64,000 nt of DNA from NCBI GenBank assembly GCA_049287025.1, contig JBAQFA010000022.1, forward strand, positions 30,225 to 94,224. Direction: 5' to 3'. A program made the translations under genes and the position numbers. Shown in pieces: positions 1-56,951 of the stretch (the first letter of the stretch is position 1; every line of letters begins with the position of its first letter). This DNA is from Candidatus Magasanikiibacteriota bacterium. Its GTDB lineage: Bacteria > Patescibacteriota > Patescibacteriia > Magasanikbacterales > UBA922. Under the pieces are notes generated by a model, which was not told the DNA's origin, ran no database searches, and saw only the letters and a list, made by a program, of their open reading frames with translations.

Positions 1-13
1 AGATATTTGTACA

Positions 14-42
14 TTGACAAAACATATAAAAATGTGTATACT
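14..42 (+). promoter_or_regulatory. sigma70-like promoter TTGACA-17-TATACT driving high-GC ORF
   Basis: ttgaca at 14-19, 17-nt spacer, tatact at 37-42; GGAGG at 60-64 five nt before ATG 70. Confidence 0.5.
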
Positions 43-69
43 TTTTTTAACAACTGACTGGAGGCGACC

Positions 70-291
70 ATGAGTCGCTCGACATTTGCTAGGAGGATGC
101 GCGAAGTGGCGAGGGCCTCTGGCCTTCGTCGTGGTGCTATCCGTCAGCAGGTAGTGGTATTCACCCCTAACGGCCAGTACGTGGGCCGAATCAAGCGGGT
201 GGAGGGATACCAGGTGGTGATTGCTTCTAGGTCGTTGATCGAGCGCAAGATCCGCGGATCTCGGATTCGCAAGATCACGCTCGTCGGCTAG
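70..291 (+). CDS. hypothetical basic 73-aa protein, compositionally foreign (high G+C)
   Basis: ORF with strong G/C third-position bias in AT-rich genome; own promoter and SD. Confidence 0.45.
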   Translation: MSRSTFARRMREVARASGLRRGAIRQQVVVFTPNGQYVGRIKRVEGYQVVIASRSLIERKIRGSRIRKITLVG

Positions 292-454
292 GGCATTCGT
301 GCTCAAGCCGACAAAAAAGGCACATTCAACAACCTACAAGGAGAACAAGGGGGGCCGACACAACAAGGAGGCCCAAAAAAGATTATCATGTTTGGTAGTC
401 TTTTTTGTTTTTATATTCAATATTTTGCTTTACATCTGAGTTTGTGTTAAAATG

Positions 455-545
455 ATCTTTGTTAGGAGCGCTTCCGTTCAATACGGGGGCTGAGAAGTAT
501 CCTTATAACTTGATCTAGGTAATGCTAGCGCAAGGAAACAGAAAC
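455..545 (+). promoter_or_regulatory. TPP (THI-box) riboswitch
   Basis: ggagcgcttccgttcaatacgggggCTGAGAagtatccttataaCTTGATCTAGGTAATGCTAGCGCAAGGAA closely matches the conserved thiM-type aptamer (CUGAGA, ACCUGAUCUGGAUAAUGCCAGCGUAGGGAA); downstream alternative hairpins and T-run; upstream TTGCTT-17-TAAAAT promoter near 427-455. Confidence 0.8.
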
Positions 546-615
546 ACTAATTTTGTTCACTAATCTTCACTAATAGTGTTTGTTGTTTCCTTGTTAGGAA
601 ATTTTTTTGTTTTTA

Positions 616-1247
616 TGAAAATTTTGATAATTGCCAATGGAGAAATTAAAAATTATGGATTTTATACATATTTAATTAGTCAGTCTGCTTTAGTTATTTG
701 TGCTGATGGGGGAGCGAATCATTGTCCTGGTTTAGACGTGGTGCCAGATTATGTAATTGGGGATTTTGATTCGGTTTCTAAAGATTTGTTGGAAGAATTA
801 AAAAATAATCATAAAACAAAAGTTATTTATGATCCAGATCAGGACAAAACTGATTTGGAATTGGCAATTAAACTTGCAGAATCATTTCAACCAGAAGAAA
901 TAAATATTATTGGGGCGATTGGTGATAGAATGGATCATACTTTAGCAAATATAATTTGTCTGGATCAAGTAAATAGAAAAATTAAAGCCAAAATTATAAA
1001 TGAAAAAAATGAAATTGAATTGATAGAAGATATTTGTGAGATAGAAGGGGAGCGGGATGATATCGTGTCTATTATCCCATTAAATTTGGTGACAGGGCTC
1101 ACTTATGAAGGATTGAAATATGGAGTAAAAAATAAACAAGTTGATTTGGGTTGGATTGGAGTGTGTAATCGTTTAGAAAATGATACAGCTAAAATTAAAA
1201 TAAATAGTGGTAAAATTTTGGTTATTAAGATTTCAGATAACAAATAG
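616..1247 (+). CDS. thiamine pyrophosphokinase (TPK)
   Basis: GGANHC and DYVIGDFDS motifs typical of TPK; ATG at 616 preferred over upstream alternative start at 576. Confidence 0.75.
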
Positions 1248-1296
1248 CAGATAACATTAAGCAGTAGACAAAATCTAAATGCTATCTGTTATCTGC
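1247..1296. repeat. composite palindrome gcagataaca...tgttatctgc with duplicated cagataac half-sites
   Basis: 10-bp perfect inverted repeat 1247-1256 / 1287-1296 plus direct copies. Confidence 0.5.
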
Positions 1297-1340
1297 ATTC
1301 TGAGACTATTAAACAACACACAAATTAATTAATAATAATT

Positions 1341-2744
1341 ATGCTTAATATTTCATCTGTCGACTACTCAATAATCATAATCTATTTTATTTCCCTACTC
1401 GCTATTGGCTATTTTATCAAGCACAAATTTATTGAGACTTCTGATTATTTCTTGGCGGGCAGAAGGTTAACCTTACCAATTTTTGTGGCCACGCTTGTTA
1501 GCACTTGGTATGGTGGTACTATGGGAGTAGTGGAATTATCTTTCAATTATGGTTTGGTCAATTGGCTGACGCAGGGATTTTTTTGGTATTTGAGTTATTT
1601 ATTTTTTGCTTTTTTCTTGGCCAAAAAAGTCCGTCAATCAGAGCTTTTTACGGTACCTGATCAACTAGAAAAATTTTATGACAAACGGTCGCGTTTTTTG
1701 GGTGGAATTTTTAGTTTTCTCATGGTGACGCCAGCGCCTTATATTTTATCTTTGGGAATTATTTTTTCGTTATTTTTTGGTTGGCCAGTCTGGGCTGGAG
1801 CCTTGTTAAGTACTATTATTACGATTTTTTATACTTATCGTGGTGGTTTTCGAGCCGATGTCATTACTGATGTGATTCAATTTTTTCTAATGTTTATTGG
1901 TATTGGTTTGCTAGTTCCTTTTGCTGTAGCAAAATTTGGGGGCTTAAGTTTTTTACAAGCCAATTTACCAGCCACGCATTTTAGTTTAACCGGGGAGTGG
2001 ACCACACAAATGATTTTAGTTTGGGGATTTATTGCTTTTTGGACTTTGCTTGATCCGAGTTTTTATCAACGTTGTTATGCTACCAAAAATGATAAAATCC
2101 CTAAGAAGGGAATATTAATTTCAATTTTATTTTGGATGGTGTTTGATTTTTTTACGACCACGATTGGTATGTATGCTCGGGCAGCGATGCCAGACCTAGA
2201 TCCAGCCACAGCCTTACCCATGTTCGCGATCGCTGTTTTACCAAAAGTTTTTTTAGGATTATTTTTTACTGGTTTGATCGCTTCTATTTTATCTACCGTA
2301 GATTCTTTTACTATGCTTGGGGCGATGAATCTCTCTCATGATTTATACAAGAAAATTTTTAAGCCAGATCTTAGTGGAGAAAGAGAAATAAAATTAACTC
2401 GTTACGGCATAATTTTTACGGCTGGAATTTCTTTAATCATTGCTATTTTTGCTAGATCAATTATTGGTATCTGGTATACTATTGGAACAATTGGTATAAG
2501 TGCTATGTTAATTCCTCTATTGTTTGGTTTTTTTTACAAACGTAAACTCTGTGCCAGTGCTTCATTTTATTCTATGATTTTTGGGTCACTTACTGCCATC
2601 GGCTGGCTAATTTATGGCTATGCCAATATGGTTGATGGTTGGGCTAGTTATTTATGGGGTATAGAGCCGATGTATCCCGGACTTATCGTATCACTGGTCG
2701 TTTATATTGGAATAACAATATTTCAAAATAAAAAATCTCTATAA
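1341..2744 (+). CDS. sodium:solute symporter (SSS) family transporter
   Basis: about 13 TM segments, LAGRRL motif near N-terminus. Confidence 0.75.
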   Translation: MLNISSVDYSIIIIYFISLLAIGYFIKHKFIETSDYFLAGRRLTLPIFVATLVSTWYGGTMGVVELSFNYGLVNWLTQGFFWYLSYLFFAFFLAKKVRQSELFTVPDQLEKFYDKRSRFLGGIFSFLMVTPAPYILSLGIIFSLFFGWPVWAGALLSTIITIFYTYRGGFRADVITDVIQFFLMFIGIGLLVPFAVAKFGGLSFLQANLPATHFSLTGEWTTQMILVWGFIAFWTLLDPSFYQRCYATKNDKIPKKGILISILFWMVFDFFTTTIGMYARAAMPDLDPATALPMFAIAVLPKVFLGLFFTGLIASILSTVDSFTMLGAMNLSHDLYKKIFKPDLSGEREIKLTRYGIIFTAGISLIIAIFARSIIGIWYTIGTIGISAMLIPLLFGFFYKRKLCASASFYSMIFGSLTAIGWLIYGYANMVDGWASYLWGIEPMYPGLIVSLVVYIGITIFQNKKSL

Positions 2745-2752
2745 AAACGAAC

Positions 2753-2784
2753 GACCCCCGACATGCAACTTGCACGCGGGGGTC
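2753..2784 (-). terminator. GC-rich hairpin terminator of high-GC gene
   Basis: gacccccg...cgggggtc stem with inner tgcaa/ttgca stem; T-run follows on minus strand. Confidence 0.55.
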
Positions 2785-2808
2785 TGTTCTCTCGCCGGGG
2801 TGACGAGC

Positions 2809-3276
2809 TCAGCTGTAGAAGCCGAGCCTCTGCCACCAGTGGGGCGGGAAAACGACGTTCGGGTTGAACTTCTGGTCGGCATCGGTGGATGACACCTTTA
2901 CCGGCTTGATCTGGACGTCCCTGTTCACGAAGAACTGGAACGTCACGAGGTCACGACCGATGTAGGTGGAAACCACAGCTACCCCGTCCGATCCCGACTC
3001 TACGTAGCCGTAGTAGTCGAAGCCGGCACCAATCTTGGGGACTTCGAGGTAGAAGCCCACCAAGGTGGTGAAGGGTCGGCCGTCCTCGCTACGCAACACG
3101 ATGTTGCGCATGCCAGGCGTCTCCTGACCGCCGTAGCTGAACTCGACCAGGTGATGGCTCGACTCCGCGAACTGGTTGAAGAAGTTGAACTTCTTCATCA
3201 TTTCGCTGGCGAGGAACCAGCTGGTGGAGGCGAACAGGACGACCAGCAATGCAAGCAGAATCGTGAGCTTGTTCAA
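2809..3276 (-). CDS. hypothetical membrane-anchored protein, compositionally foreign (high G+C)
   Basis: TTG start at 3276 preceded by GGAGAG; N-terminal TM helix; track ORF to 3348 would overlap its own promoter. Confidence 0.45.
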   Translation of the reverse strand: MNKLTILLALLVVLFASTSWFLASEMMKKFNFFNQFAESSHHLVEFSYGGQETPGMRNIVLRSEDGRPFTTLVGFYLEVPKIGAGFDYYGYVESGSDGVAVVSTYIGRDLVTFQFFVNRDVQIKPVKVSSTDADQKFNPNVVFPPHWWQRLGFYS

Positions 3277-3319
3277 TTGTCTCTCCAGATTTGGGTTGTT
3301 CTCAACTTCCGAACGATTC

Positions 3320-3348
3320 AATATAACATAAAAACAGACCTTTGTCAA
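3320..3348 (-). promoter_or_regulatory. sigma70-like promoter TTGACA-17-TATATT (minus strand)
   Basis: tgtcaa 3343-3348 and aatata 3320-3325 on plus strand. Confidence 0.5.
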
Positions 3349-3384
3349 GGTCTATTTAGTATAATTTAGCTAGATTTAGGCTTT

Positions 3385-4176
3385 TTATTTATTTTTAGTA
3401 AATACGACAGAATTTATAACTTTTTCTATATCTTTTATAGTAATTTCTGGGTATTTAAAATAAAAACTTAATGTTTTGAATTCATCACTATAGTCTTCAG
3501 GTAGTTTTAAAATGGCAATTATTCCATCTTTTTCATTCGCATAAAAATTAATTGCATAAAACACATAGGCTTCAAGATTATCTTCTCTAATTATAGTTTT
3601 TAAATAATTTTTATCATTAGTTATTGAAGAAGTGTTAAATTCATAATTATTTGTATGCCAATAATCTTTACCTGCAGTAAAATCTTTAGAAACACCACCA
3701 GCAAATTCATACCCATGATTAGATAAGTCAAGTACACGCCAACTATATTGCGAACCACTATCTAAACTATAATACTCTGGAGCTAATTTCGGTGATTGAT
3801 AATTATAATCCGTACTACTCACTGCTCCCAAAGGTATGGGAAAATTAAAAGAAATATTTACATCTTTACTTTCAAATTTTTTCCAAACAAATTTGTTAAT
3901 TTTTGGAATATAAACATCTACATTTTCTGATATTCTAGCATTGTTATAAACAAATTCTTCATTATTTTTAGGATAAATATAACATCCATTACCACAACTA
4001 ATTAATTCTTCTGGTGTGGTTAATATTTTACCTTCAACAGTGTTCAATTGAATTTTTTTAATTTCTTCTTTTTTTACTATTTCAACATTTTTGTTTACTA
4101 TTTCAACATTTTTGTTTTTTGTGGCACAGCCTGTAGTAAAAATAATAATAATTAGAACTAATAAAATTTTATACAT
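3385..4176 (-). CDS. lipoprotein, hypothetical
   Basis: lipobox FTTGC after signal peptide; internal 21-bp tandem duplication near 4075-4120. Confidence 0.5.
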   Translation of the reverse strand: MYKILLVLIIIIFTTGCATKNKNVEIVNKNVEIVKKEEIKKIQLNTVEGKILTTPEELISCGNGCYIYPKNNEEFVYNNARISENVDVYIPKINKFVWKKFESKDVNISFNFPIPLGAVSSTDYNYQSPKLAPEYYSLDSGSQYSWRVLDLSNHGYEFAGGVSKDFTAGKDYWHTNNYEFNTSSITNDKNYLKTIIREDNLEAYVFYAINFYANEKDGIIAILKLPEDYSDEFKTLSFYFKYPEITIKDIEKVINSVVFTKNK

Positions 4177-4180
4177 AAGT

Positions 4181-4441
4181 TTATTTATTTTTTAACCACC
4201 ATTTTTTAAAAAAGGGAATTGATAAAGTAGAAATAACAAAAGCAAGAGAGGGGACAACCGCATTTTTAAATGGTTCTGATAAATTGGCAAAATAAAAAAA
4301 TATAGTGATTACCAAATAAGTAGAAACCAGAATAATGAATCGGCGTGCCCAGCTCGTTTCCCAGGCTTTGTCTTTCTCTACCCGTTCATTACGTTCTTTT
4401 ATTTCATTTATTTGTTGTTGAAGTTCTTCATTTGTGGGCAT
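4181..4441 (-). CDS. small membrane protein
   Basis: ORF, one or two TM helices. Confidence 0.35.
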   Translation of the reverse strand: MPTNEELQQQINEIKERNERVEKDKAWETSWARRFIILVSTYLVITIFFYFANLSEPFKNAVVPSLAFVISTLSIPFFKKWWLKNK

Positions 4442-4451
4442 AAAATTTTAA

Positions 4452-4766
4452 TTATTTTTTAAAATATTTTTCTTTTATTAGCCAGATCAATCCCATAAGA
4501 CAAAAAAATAAAGCAAGAACGAGTGAATAGAGTGAATGGCCAACACCACATTTGATATCATCTGGGTTTAACCAGCAATCAATTGGACCGGCTAAAAATT
4601 TTGTATACAAACTCAAAATGATAGCGACTGCAATTAAATACAGACCTTTATGGTACCAGGCCTTACCTCTGGCTATTTTTTCTAGCGGTAAGTAGACTCC
4701 TAGGAAAATCATGCTGAGAGCTAGAGTAAAAAATAGTACTTGTATGATTGGTGATGTATTCATCAT
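4452..4766 (-). CDS. small membrane protein
   Basis: ORF, three TM helices; overlaps next gene by ATGA. Confidence 0.4.
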   Translation of the reverse strand: MMNTSPIIQVLFFTLALSMIFLGVYLPLEKIARGKAWYHKGLYLIAVAIILSLYTKFLAGPIDCWLNPDDIKCGVGHSLYSLVLALFFCLMGLIWLIKEKYFKK

Positions 4767-5386
4767 AATAAATTGTTAAGAGTAGAATATCCTAAATATA
4801 TGGCAAAGGCAATTAAAATACAACCGGCAATAAAAGAAATTATTTTCATTACTTTTTCATTGACAAATCTCTTGCCCATATGTGCTAAAAAAGAAATGAC
4901 AAATCCCCAAATTATTGCGCCCAAGATTACAAAGCCTAAATTTATCAAAAAATTAAGGTTATGTGTATTGTAGTTTGGGTTGGAAGCAAAGATGCTATAA
5001 AAACCTAGCCACGCAATGGGAGCTAAGGGGTTTGTGATGTTGATTAAAAATCCAGCCCAGAAAGTATCACCAAAAGTTTTTTTAATTTTTTTATCTAAAA
5101 TATTTTTTCCAAAAGCGTTTTTGATATCACCAATACCAAAGTAAATTAATAGTAGCACGCCAAAAGTTCCTAAGACCAGGGAAAAAGTTTGACTTTGGAA
5201 AAAAGAAGTAAAAGCAAAAAAGATTAAGATCAAATAAATGGCGTCGATCAAAACTGCACCCATGTTGGTTATAAACGCTGACCAAAATCCATGTTCTAGT
5301 CCGCGTCGAATAGTTAAAATAGTCACTGGACCAATAGCGGCTACAAAACTAATACCAAGGATAATGAATTTTAGAAAGTCGGGCAT
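4763..5386 (-). CDS. LysE/RhtB family translocator
   Basis: about 200 aa, 6 TM, N-terminal GPV..RGL motif. Confidence 0.5.
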   Translation of the reverse strand: MPDFLKFIILGISFVAAIGPVTILTIRRGLEHGFWSAFITNMGAVLIDAIYLILIFFAFTSFFQSQTFSLVLGTFGVLLLIYFGIGDIKNAFGKNILDKKIKKTFGDTFWAGFLINITNPLAPIAWLGFYSIFASNPNYNTHNLNFLINLGFVILGAIIWGFVISFLAHMGKRFVNEKVMKIISFIAGCILIAFAIYLGYSTLNNLL

Positions 5387-5390
5387 AAAA

Positions 5391-5939
5391 TTAAATCATT
5401 TTTAAAAAATTTCTAAAAATTTGTTTTCCATTTTCACCAGAGACTTCAGGATGGAATTGTAAGCCATATTTATTGCCAAATTTCATGGCTTCATTTTCAC
5501 AAGAAATAGATTTGGCCAATAACATAATATCAACCGGCAAAGAGACAAATTCAGAGTGTTCTTTTTTAAATAAAGTATTTTTATCTACGCCTTCAAATAG
5601 GGGATCATATTGAATAATTTCAATTGGTTCATCTTTACTAATCAATTCACCATGGCCAATTTGTCCGCCATACAAAAGACCTAATATCTGATGACCGAGA
5701 CAGATTCCTAAAACTGGAATATTAATATTTTTTATAAATTCAAATGGCTGAATAAATTTTTTATAATCAATTTGTGAAAGTTTGGTTGGTCCACCAGTAA
5801 TAATAATGCCAGAGTAAACGTTAAAATCATGATTTGTGATTTAATCAATGTTTACAACTATATTTTTATAACCAAAATCATTAAAAGTATTTTGAATATT
5901 TTTTAAAAACATGGTGCCACAATTAATAATACAGATCAT
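5391..5939 (-). pseudogene. class I glutamine amidotransferase (GuaA-N-like) interrupted by in-frame TAA
   Basis: GICLGHQ Cys and FHPEVS His motifs; ATG 5939, in-frame TAA at 5841-5843 (codon 33), frame continues ITNHDFNVYSGIIITGGP. Confidence 0.5.
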
Positions 5940-5952
5940 AATTTATTTTAAC

Positions 5953-6267
5953 TTACTTTTTTATAATTTTAATTCCTCTTAATCCTAAAATCAATAAAAC
6001 CAAAATAATTATTTTTAAAATATAGTGGCCATGTAAATCTAAAAAATTTTTTGTAAATGGAGTAACGTTGCCAACTAATAGATGTATAATAATAGAGATT
6101 GGTAGAGTAAGAAAAAGCCAATTGATTTTTGGTATGTCAAGTTTGATTTTTTTAAAGAGTTTGGTTAATAGGGGAGAAAGTAACCAAATTCCAAGAAAAG
6201 AAACAACAAAATCAAAAATTGCATAGCCACCCAATCTAAATTGACGTAGAAATTCAATAATAGACAT
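5953..6267 (-). CDS. small membrane protein
   Basis: ORF with 3 TM. Confidence 0.4.
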   Translation of the reverse strand: MSIIEFLRQFRLGGYAIFDFVVSFLGIWLLSPLLTKLFKKIKLDIPKINWLFLTLPISIIIHLLVGNVTPFTKNFLDLHGHYILKIIILVLLILGLRGIKIIKK

Positions 6268-6270
6268 AAA

Positions 6271-6882
6271 TTATTTATTAAATTTATTCCACTTTTCAAT
6301 CAAAGCTAAAATATCTTTTTCAAATTCTAGCATTAGTTTTTGATTGTTTTCCGCGGTTTTCCAGTTTGATCTTTCTTCAGCTCCGAGTAATCTGCCAAAA
6401 ATATCTCTAAAAAATCTTGGATAACCCAGGTCAGTATTTACTAACCATTTTTGATTTTTATTTTCCAAGAAAAGATATTTTTGTTTTTGAACAAATTCCT
6501 TTTTCATTTCTTCTAGATTAGAAATTTTATGCAAGGTTTTTTCATCTGGTATTATTTGTTCAGTATTAAAATTAAAAGGTAAGAAATGGGTGTGAGCATG
6601 AAAAACAGTTTGACCAGTAACACCGTGTTCAAATATTCCTACTTCACCATAGTATGTTTTTATAAACAATTTAACTTTTTCGTATAGTTCTATATATTTT
6701 CCAAAAGCGTCTTCTGACAAACTACCCATGGTAGAGACATGAGCTTTGGGAATAATAAGAATATGTCCTTCGGTGAGTGGGTGAACATCACAAACAATCC
6801 AAAATAAATTATCAGTATAGAGTGGATGTTTTAGTCCGATTTCACCAGGGCAGTGAGCGCAGTTGTTATCTTGATTATTCAT
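6271..6882 (-). CDS. HIT family hydrolase-like protein
   Basis: HAHTHFL histidine triad motif, CAHCPGE N-terminal. Confidence 0.55.
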   Translation of the reverse strand: MNNQDNNCAHCPGEIGLKHPLYTDNLFWIVCDVHPLTEGHILIIPKAHVSTMGSLSEDAFGKYIELYEKVKLFIKTYYGEVGIFEHGVTGQTVFHAHTHFLPFNFNTEQIIPDEKTLHKISNLEEMKKEFVQKQKYLFLENKNQKWLVNTDLGYPRFFRDIFGRLLGAEERSNWKTAENNQKLMLEFEKDILALIEKWNKFNK

Positions 6883-6925
6883 AAAATTACAACACTATTG
6901 TATCATCTTTTATTAAATAAAAAAA

Positions 6926-6950
6926 CTCCCCAGGGTTGGTGGGGAGTTCT
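6926..6950. terminator. bidirectional intrinsic terminator aaaaaactccccagggttggtggggagtt
   Basis: A-run, GC stem, T-run. Confidence 0.6.
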
Positions 6951-7019
6951 GTGTTTGAATTATTTTTTTATACCTATTATTCCACTAATGTAAATTTCAA
7001 TTTTTATATGTATTAAATA

Positions 7020-7517
7020 TTATTTATTGCACGCCTCATAAAAAAGTATAGCAGATTTTACTCGTAGGTATTCAATACAAGATGCCATCACTGGTTGAGC
7101 TTGTTCTGAAAATAATTTATCATCACAACCTTTATTTCTAGGTGATTTTCTACAATTTAAGATTTTTTCCGCTATATTATTGTTGTAAAATGAGTAACAG
7201 CCAAGTGCAATTTTATCTACCTGTTTTCCAATATCTAAATTTTTAGTAACACAGTCTTGATAATTTTTGTCAGATTGAAGTAATTTTATAGCTTTTAAGC
7301 TTATGGCATATTCTTCTTTTGTGAAAGTGTGAGACTGTGTACTATCGTTTTTATTATCAGTAGATTCAATATCATTGTTTGTTTGAACTGGTGGCTGAGT
7401 AATAGTTTTGGATTGTTCTGGATTAGCGGAATCATCATTTATTAGAGTGTCTTGTCCGGTAGTGGCACAGCCAGTTAAGAGGAGTGCAAAAGATAATGCA
7501 AAAATGATTTTTTTCAT
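7020..7517 (-). CDS. lipoprotein, hypothetical
   Basis: LLTGCATT lipobox. Confidence 0.5.
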   Translation of the reverse strand: MKKIIFALSFALLLTGCATTGQDTLINDDSANPEQSKTITQPPVQTNNDIESTDNKNDSTQSHTFTKEEYAISLKAIKLLQSDKNYQDCVTKNLDIGKQVDKIALGCYSFYNNNIAEKILNCRKSPRNKGCDDKLFSEQAQPVMASCIEYLRVKSAILFYEACNK

Positions 7518-7605
7518 AATAGTATGAAATGATTAATTAGTTAATAAAATTTGTATAATTTAAGCAAGATTGTTATATATGATGATTATATCACTTTTTT
7601 CCATA

Positions 7606-7633
7606 TAAAAAAACTCCCCAGGGTGGGGAAGTT
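7606..7633. terminator. intrinsic terminator aaaaaactccccagggtggggaagttt
   Basis: same family as 6926. Confidence 0.55.
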
Positions 7634-7643
7634 TAATTGTATT

Positions 7644-8690
7644 TTATGATTGATCACGTTGAATTCCACTAGGGGTTGCTTGAATTTTACCAAATCCTAG
7701 GGCTGACCCGTTTGTTTCTAAGTAGAAGTTCATTTTGTAAGTTTGTCCATCGTTTGAGACATAGGTATAGTTTGATTGTGGTGATAGTGGGTCAGATGGA
7801 ACTGGGTTCATAAATTGGTAAGGCTTTTCACATCCGGCTGGTTCAAAACCATTTTCTCCTAAACATGTGTAGTTTTTTGAACCTAGAATAATGGCTGAGT
7901 TTGCTAGAGGATATTTGTGGTTGTTTTGATAATATAGTTCTAAAGATGTTTGAATTCGTCTCATTTCGCTTATTCTTTGTTCATCTCTTTTTTTTGCTTC
8001 TAATTCTAATGTAACCTCATCTGGTAGAGCGGGGACATTAGTAATTAATGTTTTTAGTTCTTTGTTTAAAGCACACTCAGCTTTAGTTTTTACTACCATA
8101 GCATAACCAGCGTAAGAAACGTCTTGGAGAATGTCAATATTAGTTTTTTCCCAATTTTGAATAGTTGGATTCCACAAATACATTTTTTCAAATTCACAGT
8201 TACCTATAGTAAGCCCGCCTTGAGAAAATTGTGGCACTATAGAAATAAAGTTCCAGCCAGCATGTAGTTTTACTGGTCTGGTAAAGGCATCTTTACTAAC
8301 TTCTAGAGTAAATTTCGCTGGCTGTTTAAAATAAATCCACATGGGGGATAATTGTAAATAATCGCGATTCTGTGCCATTATTTGGTAATCAGCATCTTTG
8401 TATCCACCAGAAGTAGTGATATATCGACCAACAGATGGGGCATAGACATAGAAAGGTGTTAAGATGTTTGATAAATCATTATTTTCATACAAATCCATAC
8501 CAGAAAAACCACCTTCTGGTAATAAATTCCAGCCTTTAGCTATTTCAATTTCTATCAACCAATGGTCAGCGTTTCTTGGGCTAGTCTTATCAGGAATGCT
8601 AGTTAATTTGGAACTAGTCATAGCTTGAGCTATTAGAGCCGAGCCAAAAATGATGGTTAGAATGATTGTGAAGAAAAAATATTTTTTCAT
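7644..8690 (-). CDS. secreted protein with C-terminal pilin-like domain
   Basis: Sec signal peptide; LELYYQNNHKYP resembles pseudopilin globular-domain motif. Confidence 0.45.
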   Translation of the reverse strand: MKKYFFFTIILTIIFGSALIAQAMTSSKLTSIPDKTSPRNADHWLIEIEIAKGWNLLPEGGFSGMDLYENNDLSNILTPFYVYAPSVGRYITTSGGYKDADYQIMAQNRDYLQLSPMWIYFKQPAKFTLEVSKDAFTRPVKLHAGWNFISIVPQFSQGGLTIGNCEFEKMYLWNPTIQNWEKTNIDILQDVSYAGYAMVVKTKAECALNKELKTLITNVPALPDEVTLELEAKKRDEQRISEMRRIQTSLELYYQNNHKYPLANSAIILGSKNYTCLGENGFEPAGCEKPYQFMNPVPSDPLSPQSNYTYVSNDGQTYKMNFYLETNGSALGFGKIQATPSGIQRDQS

Positions 8691-8706
8691 ATTATATAAA
8701 TTTTAT

Positions 8707-8931
8707 TTAATCTTTTGGTAGAGCCGGTGGCGGTGGTATAACATTATCAGAATCAGAATTTTTAGTTTCAGTATTGTTTGTTTTTATAACAGCGTTATTT
8801 ACAGTTTCTTCATCACTTGGTAGAGCTGGTGGTTGTGGTGCCACCTCGTCATTTTTTTGTGATTTATTATAAGTAGTAGCACAGCCACTCATTATTAGTA
8901 TCAAAACTAATAATAACATTGTTTTTTTCAT
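8707..8931 (-). CDS. small lipoprotein
   Basis: MSGCATT lipobox; leader 8932-8960 duplicated at 7518-7550. Confidence 0.45.
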   Translation of the reverse strand: MKKTMLLLVLILIMSGCATTYNKSQKNDEVAPQPPALPSDEETVNNAVIKTNNTETKNSDSDNVIPPPPALPKD

Positions 8932-9049
8932 ATAGTATGAAATGATTAATTAGTGAATAGACTTTAGCATAATTAAGCTAAAATGTCAATATAAAATGGC
9001 TTGGTTATTATAGCATAATTTTTTGTATAAAAATACTTCAAAAATATAT

Positions 9050-9079
9050 TTGACTAAGTATATAAAATTTGGTTAAATA
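9050..9079 (+). promoter_or_regulatory. sigma70-like promoter TTGACT-17-TTAAAT
   Basis: immediately upstream of high-GC ORF, SD ctgagg. Confidence 0.4.
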
Positions 9080-9102
9080 TTTTTGGTAACCAACTGAGGC
9101 TG

Positions 9103-9300
9103 ATGATGTGTCTCTTTAGCGAGCTGTCCGAGGGATCGCACTTCCATCGGAAGGACGACCATGTGATCTACAAGAGGATGCGGCTGGCCTGGTATGTGTT
9201 TTGGCTCGGAATCTGCCGAGCCAACGCCGTCCGACTCGAGGATGGCAGTGGCCCGAAGTACTGTCGGGTCGCGGACAATACGGAGGTCGTCTGGGTCTAG
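9103..9300 (+). CDS. hypothetical 65-aa protein, compositionally foreign (high G+C)
   Basis: highest GC3 of the overlapping frames; promoter and SD; GC hairpin 9313-9340 after stop. Confidence 0.35.
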   Translation: MMCLFSELSEGSHFHRKDDHVIYKRMRLAWYVFWLGICRANAVRLEDGSGPKYCRVADNTEVVWV

Positions 9301-9413
9301 CCAACCCACCCCCCCCTGTGATATCGTGTTGCAGGGGGCAACCGAGATTGGGAGGATTTTTATAAACACCCACCATGACTTGCTTTGATTCTGTTTTATA
9401 AAACCGAGTTAGA

Positions 9414-9500
9414 GTAAGGAGACGGTGGGTGTTTTGTTTTATAAAAAAACTCCATAGGGTGGTGTTTAGGGTTCCAGAAAAAAAAGAAAATCAATAATAA
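9414..9500. repeat. direct repeat copy 1 (about 85 bp) flanking high-GC cassette
   Basis: about 90% identical to 9991-10082; contains terminator-like core aaaaaactccatagggtggtg. Confidence 0.7.
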
Positions 9501-9593
9501 AATTACTTGACAAATTTTGTGATATGTTATAGCATAAGACGCTGTATCAGTGGGCCTTTAGTGTCACTTGGACAATAAACGGAGGTGAGGACC

Positions 9594-9899
9594 ATGATCG
9601 TCTTTGGCTGGCTGAAGAAACTTCGGGAACGGAAGGTGCGACGCCTAGAGCAGCAGGAGGCTGCGAGGGCGAAGATGCGGCAGGCGATTGTCGCCTTCAA
9701 CGAGGAGGACTCTGTTGATCCGGTGGCTCGGATCAACAAGGTGGTGCCCATCCTGCAGGCCTACACCACCCTAGCCGACGCTTTCGACCCCGGGTGGCGA
9801 CAGTGGGGGAAGTGCGACCTCACGACTATTCCGGAACTCCACGAGTTCCGAGGCTACATCGGGGTCGTTTTCGCCGACTGTGAGAGCCTGTTCGACTGA
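9594..9899 (+). CDS. hypothetical 101-aa protein, compositionally foreign (high G+C)
   Basis: GGAGGTGAGG SD 9581-9590; TTGACA 9506-9511 promoter; high G+C. Confidence 0.4.
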   Translation: MIVFGWLKKLRERKVRRLEQQEAARAKMRQAIVAFNEEDSVDPVARINKVVPILQAYTTLADAFDPGWRQWGKCDLTTIPELHEFRGYIGVVFADCESLFD

Positions 9900-9990
9900 C
9901 CACAGTTCGTTGGCTTGTAGAGAGGGGGCAAGTCAACGGTACAACAACAACCATTCCACCCCTCGTTAATATTTCAGAATTGGAATAATA

Positions 9991-10082
9991 GCGAAGGAGA
10001 AGAGGAATGGTTTTTGTTTTATAAAAAAACTACATAGGGTGGTGCTTAGGGTTCCAGCAGAAAAAGAAAATCAATAATAAAA
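9991..10082. repeat. direct repeat copy 2
   Basis: see 9414-9500. Confidence 0.7.
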
Positions 10083-10106
10083 CCGACTATTGAGTCGGTT
10101 TTATTT
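10082..10106 (-). terminator. hairpin terminator aaaaccgactattgagtcggtttt
   Basis: 8-bp stem, T-rich on minus; near-identical copy at 10816. Confidence 0.55.
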
Positions 10107-10130
10107 GTCTTTTAATATGTTGTGGGGTTA

Positions 10131-10763
10131 TTAATAAAGAAACACACTTACTAATCCAACTAAAATAATAATAATGCCTAATATTTTTCTAACAACATCC
10201 TCATGCTTTTGATAAAATGATATAGCCCATTTTTGTGAAAACAATTTTGCCCACACGGATCCCATAAGAAAATAAATTGCGGGCAGTATTATGAAAGAAA
10301 TAAATAATACCCACCATGGGAATTCAACTTTTCTTATAGCAAAGAATACGCTCATAAAAAATACAGCATATTTTGGATTAAACAACCCAGTTAAAAAACC
10401 CATTCTTATGGCCTCAGTTTTAGTAAGTTCTTTTATGTGTTCTTTTTCTCCTTCTATTTTTTTTGTCATTATCTCTCTGGAGAGAATTGTTCTCATGCCT
10501 ACGCCAGTGAGATAAATTACACTCAAAATTTGAATTGTTTCAAAAGAAAAATCCCAAACTTTGGAGATGAGAGAAAAAGCGACAATTGACCAAATGATAT
10601 GTATTATGGTGGCCATAGCATTACCCATGGCTGTTTGGATGCCGGTTTTACGTGAGTAAATTAAAGAATTTCTAACAATGACAAAAATTGATGGTTCAAT
10701 TTTGAACCACTCCAAAACACCCAAGGCGCCAAACATTATGATTGATAGTATATTGTCTGCCAT
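10131..10763 (-). CDS. LysE/RhtB family translocator
   Basis: 6 TM, about 210 aa. Confidence 0.5.
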   Translation of the reverse strand: MADNILSIIMFGALGVLEWFKIEPSIFVIVRNSLIYSRKTGIQTAMGNAMATIIHIIWSIVAFSLISKVWDFSFETIQILSVIYLTGVGMRTILSREIMTKKIEGEKEHIKELTKTEAIRMGFLTGLFNPKYAVFFMSVFFAIRKVEFPWWVLFISFIILPAIYFLMGSVWAKLFSQKWAISFYQKHEDVVRKILGIIIILVGLVSVFLY

Positions 10764-10815
10764 ATCATTACATGATATTAAAATTTTTAAAAATAGTCAA
10801 ATAAAATTTTAGTAA

Positions 10816-10841
10816 AACCGACTGGTGGGTCGGTTTTATTT
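10816..10841 (-). terminator. hairpin terminator aaaaccgactggtgggtcggtttt
   Basis: repeat of 10082 hairpin. Confidence 0.55.
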
Positions 10842-10896
10842 GTCTATACTAGTGTTTAAAATCTCCTCCGGGGTTATGGGGTATTATTATTTGAAT

Positions 10897-11496
10897 TTAT
10901 ATAATTTTTATATACTCAGCAAACCTTTTGCCGTAATCGGATATGAAAATTATAGGGTTAAGATTTTCATCTTGAGCACCATTCATCATAAAATCTCCTC
11001 TTCTAGTTTCCAGAAAACCTAATGATATTAGTTTGTTAACGCCACCATAAATTAGGTATATATCATTTCCGCCTAATGACCTTATTGGTACAGGGTCTTG
11101 ATTGCTAAAAAGAGAAGCTAGTAAAATGCACTCGAATTCAGATAAATCATCTAATATTTTTAAGAAAGTTTTGCGTTCATCGATATCATTTATAATAGGT
11201 GTGTTCAATGTTTTTATAAAAAAATTTTTTAATAATCGTTTTTTTTCTTCCCTTGTCTCTATCTCAACTCGGTTTAGTATGTCTTCAATTAAATTGGTTA
11301 GGTCTTCCTTGTTGTGTTTAGACAAAGCAGACTCATTAATTGGATTTTGTTCCAATTCCTGTTTGACTTGTTCTAAAAATTTTTCTAATCTTTCAAATCT
11401 TTTTTCTTGTTTGTTTCCAAAATATAAAGTTGCAAGTGATCCACCTATATATGGGACAGCATTCAATCCCGCTTCAATTATGGTGTCTCGTTTCAT
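10897..11496 (-). CDS. hypothetical protein, co-oriented 26 bp downstream of clpB
   Basis: ORF; no recognised motif. Confidence 0.45.
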   Translation of the reverse strand: MKRDTIIEAGLNAVPYIGGSLATLYFGNKQEKRFERLEKFLEQVKQELEQNPINESALSKHNKEDLTNLIEDILNRVEIETREEKKRLLKNFFIKTLNTPIINDIDERKTFLKILDDLSEFECILLASLFSNQDPVPIRSLGGNDIYLIYGGVNKLISLGFLETRRGDFMMNGAQDENLNPIIFISDYGKRFAEYIKII

Positions 11497-11522
11497 ATTT
11501 ATAATATTAAAATAGTATTTTA

Positions 11523-14159
11523 TTATTTTATTTCAATCTTATCCTTATTTATTTCCACCTTCACCTTGTCACCATCCTCAATCTTTCCTTCTACAATTTG
11601 CATAGCGAGTTTGTCCAAGAGTTCAGTTTGCAAAACTCGTTTTAGAGGGCGAGCGCCGAGATTGGGATCATAACCTTTTTTGGCGAGCCAGTCTTTGGCT
11701 TTTTTGCTCACATCTAGTTCAATTTTTTTACCAAGCAGGCGAGTGGCGATTTTGGCGAGTTGTAAGTCAACAATTTCGCGGATCTGTTCCTCATTCAATG
11801 GATGGAAAGTAATAATATCATCTACACGATTTAGAAATTCTGGTTTAAATTGTTCACGCAGAGCTTCCATTACTTTATTTTTTATCATTTCTTCTTTTAA
11901 TTTTTTATCTCCATCGCCAGAAGCCGAAAATCCAAAGTCACCACTTCTACCCATTTGCATGATCATGTCTGAACCAATATTTGATGTCATAATAATGACC
12001 GTGTTTTTGAAATTTACTTTCCGGCCCTTAGAATCTGTCAGGTGGCCATCTTCCAGAATCTGCAACATCATATTGAACACATCAGGATGGGCTTTTTCTA
12101 TTTCATCAAATAAAATAACTGAGTATGGTCGGCGACGGACGATTTCGGTCAGTTGTCCGCCCTCATCATAACCAACATAGCCAGGAGGGGAGCCAATCAT
12201 TTTGCTAATCGCATGCTTTTCCATATATTCGCTCATATCTACACGCACGAGAGCATCTTCTTCATTAAACATAAATTCAGCCAGAGCTTTGGCTAGTTCA
12301 GTTTTGCCCACACCGGTTGGACCCATGAATATAAATGAACCAATCGGCCGTTTTTCTTCACTCACTCCAGCGCGTGATCGACGAATGGCATTTGATATGG
12401 CCGTGATAGATTCTTCTTGACCAATCACCCGTTTTTTCAAATCTGTTTCCATGTGCGCGAGTTTTTTTATTTCGTCCTGGAGCATTTTACTTACGGGAAT
12501 ACCAGTCCAACGCGCGACTACTGCGGCAATATCTTCTTCATTCACTTCTTCTTTTAGAATCGCTCGGCCTTTTTGAATTTCGGCCAAATGTTTTTCACTT
12601 TTTTTGATCGCTTCTTCCATCATCGGGATTTTGCCATAGCGAATCTCCGCGACTTTTTGCAAATCACCTTTACGTTCTTCAATATCCGCTTGTTGTTTTA
12701 GTTTATCAATTTCTTTTTTGTGTTCGCGAATTTTGGTTATGATTTCTTTTTCATTTTTCCAATGCACTTCCAATTCATGACTTTTTTCTTTCAAGTTGGC
12801 TAATTCTTCTTTTAATTTTTTCATCCGGTCTTTGGATTCACTATCTTCTTCAGTTTTTAGAGCGCGGAGTTCAATATCAATCTTCATCATTTTCCGTTTC
12901 ATTTTGTCCAGGTCATCGGGCATAGAATCTATTTCCATACGGAGAGCAGACGTGGCTTCGTCAATCAGGTCAATCGCTTTGTCTGGTAAAAAGCGATCAG
13001 AAATATAGCGCGTAGAAAGTTCTACCGCGGCTACAATAGCCGGGTCAGTAATCCGCACACCATGATGCACTTCATATTTTTCTTTTATACCACGAAGAAT
13101 CGCAATCGTGTCATCTACACTTGGTTCATGAACCATGACAGGTTGAAAACGGCGTTCAAAAGCGGCATCTCGTTCAATATATTTTTGGTATTCTTTGAGA
13201 GTCGTGGCGCCAATGGTATGAAGTTCACCGCGGGCCAGAGCTGGTTTCAACATGTTGCTTCCGTCAATCGCACCCTCGGTAGAGCCAGAGCCGACAATCG
13301 TGTGGAGTTCATCAATAAATAAAATTATTTTTCCATTAGCTTCAGTGATTTCTTTTAACACTGCTTTAAATCTTTCTTCAAATTCACCACGGAATTTTGT
13401 GCCAGCAATCAATGACCCAATATCCAAAGCAATCACTTCTTTATCTTTTATACTTTCTGGCACATCACCATCGACAATTCTTTGCGCTAGGCCTTCTACA
13501 ATCGCCGTTTTACCTACACCTGGTTCACCAATTAAGACTGGATTATTCTTTGTTCTACGAGAAAGCACTTGCATTACCCGACGCACTTCATCATCCCGAC
13601 CAATCACTGGATCAAGTTTTTCTTTACGCGCCAAGTCAGTGAGATTTTTTCCATATTTTTCCAAAGCTTGATATTTGCTTTCTGGCTCAGGTGAATCAAC
13701 TTTTTGGGTACCTCGCACTTTTGCTAAAACTTTTAAGACATCATCATACTGAACTGCTTGATTTGATAAAACATCACTAATTGGATTTTTGTTAGTCAAA
13801 AAAGCCAAGAGTAAATGTTCTACACTAATATAGTCGTCGCCCATTTTTTGCGCTTCATTGCCAGCATTTTGAATAATATACATCATGGCCTGACCCATTA
13901 AGATTTGTCCTAAACCACCATGAGACATCTGACCTTTTTGTTTCGGTAAAACATTAATCATGGCTTGGACTTCATTTCTCAGTTGCTCTAGATTAACATT
14001 TAATTTTTTCATGATAGACACAACCACACCATCTTCTTGTTCTAATAGGGCAGAGAAGAGATGAGGAGGTTCTACTTGCGGTTGGCCATTTTCATTGGCA
14101 ATTTGATAAGCGCGTTGTAGAGCTTCTTGTGATTTGTGGGTAAAGTTTTGTGGTGTCAT
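11523..14159 (-). CDS. clpB: ATP-dependent chaperone ClpB
   Basis: two AAA+ modules ([16 protein letters not shown]), coiled-coil middle domain, 878 aa. Confidence 0.92.
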
Positions 14160-14202
14160 AAAACATTGATTTCACTGATTAATATGGATTTCACTGAGAG
14201 CA

Positions 14203-14229
14203 TTAGCACTCTTAGTATCCGAGTGATAA
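14203..14229. promoter_or_regulatory. CIRCE-like HrcA operator TTAGCACTC-N9-GAGTGATAA
   Basis: matches CIRCE consensus TTAGCACTC-N9-GAGTGCTAA with one mismatch; 44 bp upstream of clpB. Confidence 0.65.
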
Positions 14230-14230
14230 T

Positions 14231-14258
14231 ATTATAACATCTTGTATTTTTTTGTCAA
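14231..14258 (-). promoter_or_regulatory. clpB promoter TTGACA-16-TATAAT
   Basis: tgtcaa 14253-14258, attata 14231-14236 on plus strand, abutting CIRCE. Confidence 0.6.
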
Positions 14259-14293
14259 ATTTGCTATTATTATAGCATAAAATTAGTTAAGAT

Positions 14294-14560
14294 ATGATTA
14301 ATATGCTAGATAAATTCAAAGATGAAAGCAAAAAAGTTGGTTTGGAAGTTAGACAAAAAGTAGCGACTTTTATTTTGGCTGGTTTTGGGTTAGTGGCTGG
14401 TTTGGCTTGGAATGAAGCCATCAAAGGGTTGATTGATAGATATTTTCCTCTAGCTTCTGGTGGTGGTTTATTGGCAAAGTTTTTGTATGCTTTTATTATT
14501 ACGATTGTGATCGTGGTGGTGTCAATTTATATTTTAAAGACAGAGAAGAAAAGTGATTGA
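14294..14560 (+). CDS. small membrane protein
   Basis: 2 TM ORF. Confidence 0.4.
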   Translation: MINMLDKFKDESKKVGLEVRQKVATFILAGFGLVAGLAWNEAIKGLIDRYFPLASGGGLLAKFLYAFIITIVIVVVSIYILKTEKKSD

Positions 14561-14562
14561 AT

Positions 14563-14645: not shown

Positions 14646-14646
14646 T

Positions 14647-15375: not shown

Positions 15376-15377
15376 AG

Positions 15378-15457: not shown

Positions 15458-15458
15458 T

Positions 15459-56527: not shown

Positions 56528-56556
56528 ATTTTATATTATTTTTATTTTCTTGTCAA
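56528..56556 (-). promoter_or_regulatory. promoter TTGACA-17-TAAAAT of Ehr-like operon
   Basis: tgtcaa 56551-56556 and atttta 56528-56533 on plus strand; 13-bp IR aaaaaacattcac/gtgaatgtttttt flanks region 56560-56632. Confidence 0.5.
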
Positions 56557-56680
56557 TAAAAAAAACATTCACCCTTCTCCTTAAATTAATTCCATAATTA
56601 TAGAATCAAATCAAGTGTGGTGAATGTTTTTTCACTACCACCAACCCACCATCCCACTGGATGGCGGGGTTGACGGTTTT

Positions 56681-56893
56681 TTAGCCTGGGACGACAGAGA
56701 AGACCAACGTGTTGTCAGGGAAGTAAACCCTCTTCTGTCGAATTCCCTCGTCCAACATCACGGTGGCGATGGCGTTGTACTGATAGTGTTCATTGACAAC
56801 CACTAACAGTACTTTGGTGTAGAGCGTTCCCTCTGGGAGTTTCCCCAGACGAAACTTGCCGTTGACCGACAACTGACCAAAAGTCATATTCAT
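56681..56893 (-). CDS. hypothetical 70-aa protein, compositionally foreign (high G+C)
   Basis: high-G+C ORF; promoter TTGACA-16-TAGAAT; palindrome ccatccagtgggatgg after stop. Confidence 0.4.
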   Translation of the reverse strand: MNMTFGQLSVNGKFRLGKLPEGTLYTKVLLVVVNEHYQYNAIATVMLDEGIRQKRVYFPDNTLVFSVVPG

Positions 56894-56923
56894 GACCAGA
56901 CCACGTGGCAGTTTGAGTAATAT

Positions 56924-56951
56924 ATTCTATATTAAATTTAAATTTTGTCAA
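56924..56951 (-). promoter_or_regulatory. promoter TTGACA-16-TAGAAT for high-GC ORF
   Basis: tgtcaa 56946-56951. Confidence 0.45.

Follow-up and report, generated by a model that had tools for sequence, protein, structure and literature searches.

A candidate accessory-gene cassette of deviant base composition at a variable site in a Magasanikbacteria chromosome

Two kinds of small accessory unit offer the closest described counterparts to the locus considered here: phage morons, which reportedly go back to Hendrix and Juhala, and the minimal mobile elements of Neisseria, said to have been described by Saunders and Snyder in 2002. A moron has been characterized as extra DNA with its own promoter and terminator, usually carrying one small accessory gene (PMC3594210), and minimal mobile elements as variable content between conserved flanking genes, with no mobility genes (PMC3787668). 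Here we analyze a 64-kb stretch of chromosome (hereafter the window) from a Candidatus Magasanikiibacteriota bacterium, and in particular the first of five G+C-rich units in it, termed cassettes 1–5 (C1–C5). On balance, we consider the segment from −14 to 412 of the window, cassette 1, to be a genuine, lineage-specific, autonomous accessory-gene cassette in a chromosome of Magasanikbacteria, members of the Patescibacteria or Candidate Phyla Radiation (CPR). These organisms have tiny, streamlined genomes and an episymbiotic lifestyle.

Like a moron, cassette 1 constitutes extra DNA, ∼415 bp relative to the related genome UBA11710, in which both flanks are conserved. It has a predicted promoter (score 11/12) and a predicted terminator hairpin of its own, and its G+C content differs from that of its surroundings (54% versus 34%). 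Unlike morons, which sit in phages or prophages, it lies among core chromosomal genes; the 64 kb contain no phage gene, and viral collections yielded no relative. Another difference from morons is the conserved structured hairpin dedicated to three of the five cassettes in the window. The likeness to minimal mobile elements is that compositionally distinct, variable content lies between the same conserved flanks, occupied here and empty in UBA11710, that this site, just 5′ of a riboswitch, contains unrelated cassettes in wider relatives, and that transposase, integrase, terminal repeats and target duplication are all lacking at cassette 1. Exchange of minimal mobile elements is presumed to occur via natural transformation and homologous recombination of the flanks. 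The units described here differ in being far smaller (single ORFs of 45–230 aa, each with a consensus promoter, a Shine–Dalgarno (SD) sequence and a terminator) and in the possibility of tandem arrays with conserved 5′ and 3′ modules. Given the absence of duplication, repeats and mobility genes, together with occupied and empty sites and alternative contents, cassette 1 fits the definition of a minimal mobile element, and that of a moron too, save for its non-phage context.

Integron cassettes, including clusters of attC sites lacking integrases (CALINs), are likewise built from small ORFs, most of them orphans. Behind each stands an imperfect hairpin, conserved at its base and variable at its tip, and the cassettes can form tandem arrays that vary strongly between strains. 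However, the window contains no intI, attI or recombinase, and every cassette has its own promoter. The hairpins read CAAAAACC.../...GGTTTTTG or CAAAAA(C)C.../...GGTTTTTG rather than the attC cores RYYYAAC/GTTRRRY, and the units are dispersed between core operons (four loci in the window), with cassette 1 having only a simple terminator. Given the lack of core sites and, in the window, of an integrase, and the promoter on each cassette, we reject an integron. Mini-cassettes of this sort in CPR genomes, G+C-rich, led by an SD sequence and tailed by a hairpin, are not described in the literature we found, our coverage of which is incomplete. Taken by itself, cassette 1 is a familiar general type of orphan accessory gene. 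What is new is the set: units resembling morons and minimal mobile elements that reside in a cellular, streamlined genome, carry a dedicated 3′ element with covariation and maintain their deviant composition.

Cassette 1 and the empty site

A sequence-only reading of this DNA had described positions 1–360 as a self-contained expression cassette, with a 73-aa ORF behind a consensus promoter and a GGAGG SD sequence. Promoter, SD sequence, ORF and terminator are indeed all present (Table 1), but the extent needs correction: the unit begins ∼14 nt before base 1 and ends near 400, and the boundaries first proposed cut off the end of the 3′ untranslated region (UTR) and the terminator. The G+C content of positions 44–400 is 54.3%, compared to a mean of about 33.6–33.7% (SD of the distribution, 5.3%) for 357-bp windows, only 0.72% of which reach this value. 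This amounts to 1.6–1.75 times the flanks, so the reported elevation stands, while a doubling is slightly generous. The segment is a mosaic, with 30% G+C in the promoter region (1–69), 59% in the ORF, 54% in the 3′ UTR and 23% in the terminator. Within the ORF, the G+C fractions at codon positions 1, 2 and 3 (GC1, GC2 and GC3) are 0.57, 0.50 and 0.69. For native ORFs of at least 150 aa, GC3 is 0.258 ± 0.089 (n = 50), which places the cassette 1 ORF ∼4.9 standard deviations away. Neither G+C content nor codon usage is therefore uniform across the window; both deviate strongly here, and the third positions are rich in G and C, as had been noticed.

The promoter scores 11/12 against the sigma-70 consensus and, together with that of cassette 2, is the best in the first 12 kb; the predicted transcription start lies near 49. 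An SD-like 5-mer is found upstream of only 1 of 57 native genes, and a GGA-type motif upstream of 6 of 57, bearing out the earlier remark that native genes mostly lack clear SD sequences. Four of the five cassettes have one (GGAGG, GGAGA, GAGG and GGAGG). Against native genes without SD sequences those of the cassettes stand out, and the cassettes, at 3.7% of the window, hold 29% of its GGAGG pentamers.

These features suggest how the unit might work. The consensus sigma-70 promoter would produce a constitutive, monocistronic mRNA of ∼360 nt, and the strong GGAGG would bring ribosomes to the G+C-rich 73-codon ORF, a device unused by native genes. A G+C-rich, more structured message plausibly needs an SD sequence, whereas native mRNAs start in A/U-rich, SD-less leaders. 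The product would be a very basic orphan protein, and the terminator would block read-through, insulating the downstream thiamine operon with its thiamine pyrophosphate (TPP) riboswitch.

The predicted protein is hydrophilic (8.3 kDa, isoelectric point 12.0) and contains 15 Arg and zero Asp. It was correctly called basic and without a recognized family: none was found in Pfam, PADLOC or PHROGs. A word-indexed search of 5.8 billion clusters returned no homolog, and a full HMMER search of 1.84 billion representatives returned no real one; its two matches, to short β-hairpin repeats in giant repeat proteins, were judged spurious. Nothing was found in a scan of IMG/VR proteins, blastn against phage and plasmid collections gave no match, and tblastn against all 40+ fetched loci (numbered with the prefix L) recovered only the query itself. 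A CsrA-like protein was considered and dropped, as Pfam is silent at E ≤ 1. At a guess, the product is an accessory protein that binds nucleic acid or a partner.

The closest genome found was that of Ca. Magasanikbacteria UBA11710 (L004), whose symporter and thiamine pyrophosphokinase (TPK) proteins are 92.5% and 79% identical to those here. UBA11710 is colinear on either side of the site, with the 199/203-aa gene on the left and the riboswitch and TPK gene on the right, but cassette 1 is missing. A segment of ∼415 bp, promoter included, from CTAATAAATATTTTT... to ...GGTAGTC, is present here and lacking there. The empty site runs from ...GATAAGTTTTGT directly into TTTTTGTAACAATT...TPP riboswitch. 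With the junctions placed by eye from occupied and empty sites, the left one (slash) reads ...gataagttttgt/ctaataaatattttt AGATATTTGTAC... here and ...gataagttttgt/tttttgtaacaatt in UBA11710. No target-site duplication is seen at the cassette 1 junctions in this comparison. The insert lies between adjacent TTTTGT/TTTTTGT copies, both also present in the empty site. The right junction falls near 400/401, which makes the T-tract of the terminator part of the pre-existing site. The nearest relative thus has an empty site, not a homolog of native composition, at this locus. An integrated conjugative element, brought to mind by an upstream DUF87/TrwB ATPase, was ruled out because the upstream region in the sister genome consists of dnaX and core genes.

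Wider relatives were collected by scanning GTDB genomes and JGI metagenomes, once each, with the symporter and a TPK alignment as queries; they have the anchor of riboswitch and TPK gene in common. In most of them a G+C-enriched small-ORF cassette lies immediately 5′ of this riboswitch: L005/L020, L006, L007/L031, L008, L017/L018, L019, L026, L027 and L030, two or three units standing in tandem in L026 and L030. None lies upstream of the riboswitch in L004, L016 or L028. The ORFs at this hot spot belong to several unrelated families, none resembling that of cassette 1, and half-hairpin remnants in L019 and L028 point to turnover. Cassette 1 would accordingly be one member of a clade-wide pool of G+C-enriched small-ORF cassettes at intergenic hot spots, which may be gained, lost and swapped between core operons without a linked mobility gene. 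By analogy with the minimal mobile elements of Neisseria, the likeliest route, and a plausible one, would be DNA uptake followed by homologous recombination via the conserved flanks.

The first part of the window also occurs elsewhere. Positions 1–12744, including cassettes 1–4, are 100% identical to contig JBAQOB010000143.1 (GCA_049304355.1, Candidatus Magasanikiibacteriota according to NCBI) from contig position 3116. The stretch 12745–15710 differs from the rest of that contig by four single-nucleotide polymorphisms (SNPs), after which the contig stops and the window continues. Long identity followed by four SNPs indicates that the window is a second assembly of the same population, so cassette 1 is present in two assemblies or more. 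An exact copy of 6822–13890, and hence of cassettes 3 and 4, occurs in a Logan assembly of run SRR28062879. The four differences from the contig of the NCBI metagenome-assembled genome (MAG) are clustered, at 14659, 14663, 15696 and 15699. The NCBI assembly breaks near 15710 and at ∼56525, the second break adjoining cassette 5; the window's source is less fragmented than this public MAG.

Several observations count against regarding cassette 1 as an autonomous accessory gene. Its junctions are known from one population only. With no homolog anywhere, its coding status has to be read from intrinsic signals only; its transcript, protein and recombination are likewise predictions from sequence. 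The GC3 excess is modest (0.69 versus a GC1 of 0.57). Single-sequence AlphaFold2 modeling gave a mean predicted local distance difference test (pLDDT) score of 44.6 and no confident fold; the predicted pattern, of low confidence, is an N-terminal helix followed by β-strands. No gene with exactly this product occurs in a gene-position collection, and the NCBI gene table for the contig lists none in the interval from the 199-aa gene upstream to the TPK gene, which also illustrates how easily such cassettes are overlooked. The transcript folds better than shuffled sequences, with z = −6.2 for the whole, a value inflated by its mixture of AT-rich and GC-rich parts, and z = −2.8 for the ORF alone. 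Cassette 1 is devoid of the two-tier hairpin that follows cassettes 3–5. Finally, natural competence has been demonstrated in Saccharibacteria (PMC10633639), not in Magasanikbacteria.

Related cassettes, their 3′ hairpin and their coding constraint

The window was said to contain five such cassettes, and five of like build were located, at four loci (Table 1). In relatives, the cassettes of the L005/L006/L017/L026/L030 group are nearly identical in promoter and 5′ UTR (TTGACA-17-TGGTATGAT, a small hairpin, AGGAGG) and in a hairpin of ∼80 nt (CAAAAACCACCC-GCGA-CTCGATTTG...loop...ATCGAG-GAGGATA-GGGTGGTTTTTG-TTTT). The ORFs between these conserved 5′ and 3′ modules differ. In the ∼80-nt hairpin, an outer stem with an A-run and a T-run is separated by an asymmetric internal loop from an inner stem whose tip varies, and a TTTTTGTTTT tail follows. 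It occurs only behind G+C-rich cassettes, at their 3′ ends.

We built a covariance model, R1, solely on six hairpins from this group of relatives. In the 64-kb window, R1 has exactly three full-length matches, at cassettes 5 (E = 4e-10), 3 (6e-9) and 4 (5e-7), each co-oriented with a G+C-rich ORF and immediately 3′ of it. Other cassettes in L006, L007, L008 and L043 match as well. For the six hits outside the training set, 95.1% of cells are standard pairs, compared to 41–53% in slid controls. Both sides have changed in 20 of 27 pairs, against 4–8 in the controls, and the covariation score is 0.83 versus 0.07–0.16. When 14 intact hairpins were folded, the 3′ side of the internal loop began with GAGRA (AGAAGA in cassette 4 and L043 if the preceding G is paired), which leaves an SD-like GGAG exposed. 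No Rfam family matches, and the two-tier hairpin is a new structured RNA element as predicted from these alignments, worth adding to RNA family libraries. A K-turn in the internal loop was considered and rejected; by eye, type-a sequences conform to it, but cassettes 3 and 4 do not. We also rejected a second small ORF following the 3′ AAGGAGG motifs, as cassettes 3 and 4 do not share the frames.

Hairpins processed by RNase III or stabilizing 3′ ends include the R-sites of phage T7 and the 'retroregulator' terminators. The hairpins of cassettes 3–5 would be similar in having upper and lower stems with an asymmetric internal loop, larger on its 3′ side, between them and a location at the 3′ end of an mRNA predicted to be strongly expressed. 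They differ in their conserved GAGRA bulge, and cassette 1 has no upper stem; an SD-like GAGRA bulge is not known to be an RNase III determinant.

The local family defined by this hairpin comprises cassettes 3, 4 and 5 together with L005–L008, L017, L026, L030 and L043. Cassette 1 has the family's promoter, its SD-led, G+C-enriched small ORF and its hot-spot location. R1 aligns to positions 373–414 only through the outer stem and tail (CAAAAAAGA...TCTTTTTTGTTTTT; 19.3 bits, E = 1.4e-5 when 201 nt are searched). A stretch of 8 nt stands in for 46 inner positions of the model, and a whole-window search gives no match there. Cassette 1 therefore shares the architecture and location of the family but not its defining hairpin.

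As cassette 1 has no homologs, coding tests were run on cassettes of the same architecture. Cassette 2 and its counterpart at the same locus of UBA11710 (2809–3276, minus strand; L004 11471–11938, minus strand) are 62% identical in amino acid sequence, with a ratio of nonsynonymous to synonymous divergence (dN/dS) of 0.23 at dS = 1.16; dS for the genes neighboring cassette 2 is 0.93 and 0.63. For family Y (72 aa, L026b versus L030a), dN/dS is 0.19 and dS 0.92. Cassette 4 and L043, a 599-bp contig (ENA ERZ27248911), give dN/dS = 0.42, dS = 0.42 and 72% amino acid identity. All measured cassette pairs have dN/dS below 1, and the values of 0.19–0.42 indicate that the cassettes encode proteins.

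Both cassette 2 orthologs retain a GC3 of 0.78–0.85 at this dS. Among the 96 codons with a conserved amino acid, third positions show 14 changes between G and C (S↔S) and 23 between G or C and A or T (S↔W). In the native symporter (GC3 of 0.28–0.30), the corresponding counts are 11 and 107. Neutral decay of cassette 2 toward an equilibrium of 0.26 would require an ancestral GC3 greater than 1, by a rough two-state estimate that depends on the assumed fraction of S↔W changes. The high GC3 of cassette 2 thus appears not to be a decaying relic of fresh transfer; selection or biased conversion seems to maintain it. At least one cassette, then, keeps a high GC3 in a genome of 34% G+C after about one substitution per synonymous site. 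This bears on whether selection, biased gene conversion or mutation sets local base composition, for which the cassettes offer a compact natural test case.

Cassette 4 shows a different pattern. Between window 9455–10090 and L043 (1–599), which comes from an ENA sample unrelated to this one and has the same AT-rich flanks, the non-coding flanks (138 and 132 nt) are 4.3–4.5% divergent and the ORF 18.6%. Through evolution or exchange, this ORF changes about nine times as fast as the promoter, UTR and hairpin around it. Either nearly every base of the flanks is constrained or ORF alleles have been swapped between conserved flanks. Cassette ORFs, in other words, turn over faster than their own regulatory flanks.

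For the cassette 2 family, ten homologs were found, which carry Patescibacteria names or come from metagenome contigs without assignment. The AlphaFold2 model of cassette 2 (pLDDT 88.6) has an N-terminal transmembrane helix and a β-sandwich ectodomain that only weakly resembles carbohydrate-binding modules and PirA (E about 0.01). Distant homologs (46% amino acid identity) lie at ∼4440–4540 of L012, L013 and L014, on Patescibacteria contigs of ∼49% G+C. Their promoter has TTGACA within a small hairpin, TTGACAAAAGGCTGTTTTTGTGCTATTAT, compared to TTGACAAAGGTCTGTTTTTATGTTATATT at window 3320–3357, which hints that the cassette 2 promoter may travel with its gene.

Cassettes 3 and 4 lie in a larger variable region, 9038–11519 (∼2.5 kb), which is missing from UBA11710 and mixes G+C-rich cassettes with genes of native composition: a second LysE-family gene (10131–10763, a paralog of 4763–5386) and a 199-aa gene (10897–11496). 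Behind the hairpins of cassettes 3 and 4 lie the two copies (9432–9502 and 10012–10082; 94% identical) of a 71-nt direct repeat, which thus brackets cassette 4. It opens with the hairpin T-tail and contains a degenerate copy of the hairpin AAAAAAACTCCCCAGGGT(TGG)TGGGGAGTT.

Other G+C-rich orphans were noted in the fetched loci. UBA11710 encodes a membrane-anchored protein of 225–234 aa beside dnaX (L004 4052–4756, minus strand). L007 has ORFs of 188 aa (11552–12118, plus strand) and 129 aa (16806–17195, plus strand), the latter followed by the family hairpin. Within the hot spot of L030, on the opposite strand, is a Cys-rich, zinc-ribbon-like ORF of 66 aa (2430–2630, minus strand).

Competing explanations

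The presence of shared modules raises a broader possibility, which we put forward only tentatively: an undescribed, dedicated cassette system in Magasanikbacteria and their relatives, in which G+C-rich, SD-led ORFs sit between standard expression modules and the resulting units are dispersed at hot spots between core operons, with cassette 1 a stripped-down member. The modules may be the promoter with its 5′ UTR and the covarying hairpin with its SD-like bulge. They may act both as RNA-level signals for expression or stability and as homology arms, or recombinase recognition sites, for the rapid swapping of alleles. The high GC3 would then not be a donor's legacy but be actively upheld, either by selection or, at recombination hot spots, by biased gene conversion. 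As practical parts, the promoter, SD and terminator modules could prove useful in the emerging genetics of CPR bacteria.

Ordinary recent horizontal transfer is another possible account of the composition. An un-ameliorated ORF from a high-G+C donor, such as the host of the episymbiont, would have landed beside a chance promoter, with no cassette system involved. It would explain the GC3 of 0.69–0.85 against a genome value of 0.26, the SD sequences on cassettes and not on native genes, and the absence of cassette 1 from the sister genome. We consider it unlikely. The 5.8 billion clusters and 1.84 billion representatives contain no homolog of cassette 1, and the homologs of cassettes 2 and 4 come from named Patescibacteria or unassigned contigs, with no other phylum represented. 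The inserted segment itself includes the AT-rich consensus promoter, the high GC3 of cassette 2 persists after a dS of 1.16, and many relatives carry other cassettes at the same site, with a shared structured 3′ module.

Whether cassette 1 makes a protein at all bears on a further explanation, in which the product is a structured non-coding or dual-function RNA and the 73-codon ORF a by-product of the low density of stop codons at high G+C. By our calculation, ∼9% of frames would be open for 73 codons at 59% G+C, and the orphan ORF, its low AlphaFold2 confidence, the lack of a recorded product and the better-than-shuffled folding (inflated for the whole transcript) all agree with this. But the 5 nt between GGAGG and the ATG are the optimal spacing, and the genome is otherwise without SD sequences, the ORF fills the G+C-rich segment, and its GC3 exceeds GC1, which exceeds GC2. 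In Rfam searches, the only gathering-level match in the window is the TPP riboswitch, and positions 1–450 at E ≤ 1 yield just a 14-bit chance match. Together with the purifying selection seen at the protein level in cassettes of the same architecture, these data make an RNA product decidedly unlikely.

Strain-variable small proteins that are predicted to be strongly expressed are candidates for functions in host interaction or conflict. A small toxin, antitoxin, anti-phage or anti-defense gene, forming an addiction or conflict module, could account for the rapid turnover: the hot spot, the fast divergence of the cassette 4 ORF relative to its conserved flanks and the small orphan proteins are typical of such genes. 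PADLOC, however, is silent for all seven cassette proteins submitted to it, neither a partner gene nor an antisense promoter is present, the hydrophilic, basic product of cassette 1 is unlike type I toxins, and dN/dS is below 1 in all pairs. We give this explanation little credence. It is very improbable that cassette 1 is a true phage moron or the remnant of a prophage or other integrated mobile element. Such an origin would suit extra DNA of deviant G+C content with its own promoter and terminator, but the 64 kb encode core functions only, with no integrase, transposase or phage structural gene, there is no PHROG match and no relative in IMG/VR or INPHARED, and the sister genome has dnaX and core genes upstream. 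An assembly chimera or contamination, in which a G+C-rich foreign fragment was stitched into a CPR contig, might be suspected from the single population and the NCBI contig breaks near some cassettes (cassette 5, ∼56.5 kb), but it is scarcely credible, as a 357-bp insert in syntenic native sequence would need two joins exactly at the promoter and terminator and be shared by two assemblies four SNPs apart, while cassettes 3 and 4 recur in the Logan assembly, cassette 2 in a genome from another study, and cassette 4, together with its AT-rich flanks, in an ENA sample of unrelated origin.

Coordinates and genomic setting

Table 1. Positions of the five cassettes and the adjoining thiamine genes in the window
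Feature	Position	Strand	Details
Cassette 1	1..412	+	
Left end of inserted unit	1..13	+	insertion starts ∼14 nt before window base 1, L001 position ∼3102
Sigma-70-type promoter (predicted)	14..42	+	−35 TTGACA 14–19, 17-nt spacer, −10 TATACT 37–42
SD sequence GGAGG	60..64	+	5 nt upstream of ATG; read from sequence
ORF, 73 aa	70..291	+	MSRSTFARRMREVARASGLRRG...ITLVG; 59% G+C, GC3 0.69
3′ UTR, 82 nt	292..373	+	A/C-rich, 54% G+C; small hairpins; unpaired AAGGAGG 365–371
Intrinsic-terminator hairpin (predicted)	374..412	+	CAAAAAAGATTA..TAGTCTTTTTTG, tail TTTTTGTTTTT; terminator scan, fold
TPP riboswitch	454..553	+	Rfam RF00059, 67.8 bits; neighbor, outside cassette 1
TPK gene	615–1247	+	Pfam TPK
SSF-family symporter gene	1341–2744	+	Pfam SSF
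Cassette 2	2745..3350	−	promoter TTGACA-17-TATATT 3348–3320, 11/12; G+C-rich ordinary terminator near 2752–2790
Cassette 2 ORF	3276–2809	−	155–170 aa, GC3 0.79–0.85
Cassette 3	9050..9442	+	promoter TTGACT-17-TTAAAT 9050–9078; two-tier hairpin 9362–9442
Cassette 3 ORF	9103–9300	+	65 aa, GC3 0.79
Cassette 4	9507..10023	+	promoter TTGACA-17-TAGCAT 9507–9535; two-tier hairpin 9944–10023
Cassette 4 ORF	9594–9899	+	101 aa, GC3 0.78–0.79
Cassette 5	56554..56951	−	promoter TTGACA-16-TAGAAT 56951–56924; two-tier hairpin 56632–56554
Cassette 5 ORF	56893–56681	−	70 aa, 49% G+C, GC3 0.66

Pfam and other scans of the 64 kb identify the genes of a core CPR chromosome. Besides the TPP riboswitch, TPK gene and SSF-family symporter gene, the window encodes ClpB, four aminoacyl-tRNA synthetases, GreA, PBP2, MreBC, Mur/Fem cell-wall enzymes, a UvrD-family helicase with a PD-(D/E)XK domain, a hydrogenase/complex-I-like operon and an F-type ATP synthase. 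None of its genes is an integrase, transposase, phage structural gene or other mobility gene, and it contains no tRNA or tmRNA that could serve as an integration target. The riboswitch, TPK gene and symporter gene look like a riboswitch-controlled operon for thiamine salvage and uptake, conserved across the clade, and form the fixed right-hand anchor of the cassette hot spot.

Two stand-alone small nuclease genes are wedged amid housekeeping genes, beside GluRS and LysRS-type synthetase genes: a GIY-YIG gene (16272–16589, plus strand, 105 aa) and a PD-(D/E)XK_3 gene (31700–32098, minus strand, 132 aa). These may be selfish or homing-type elements. Two neighboring lipoprotein genes (7020–7517 and 8707–8931, both on the minus strand) are 70–75% identical in their 5′ ends, which encode the signal peptide, and upstream sequence (7459–7573 versus 8873–8986), and represent a local duplication of a promoter and lipobox module. 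A second intergenic repeat family of the region is the bidirectional, terminator-like hairpin AAAAAAACTCCCCAGGGT(TGG)TGGGGAGTT, found at 6922–6950 and 7611–7634 amid native minus-strand genes, with degenerate copies at 9440–9463 and 10020–10043.

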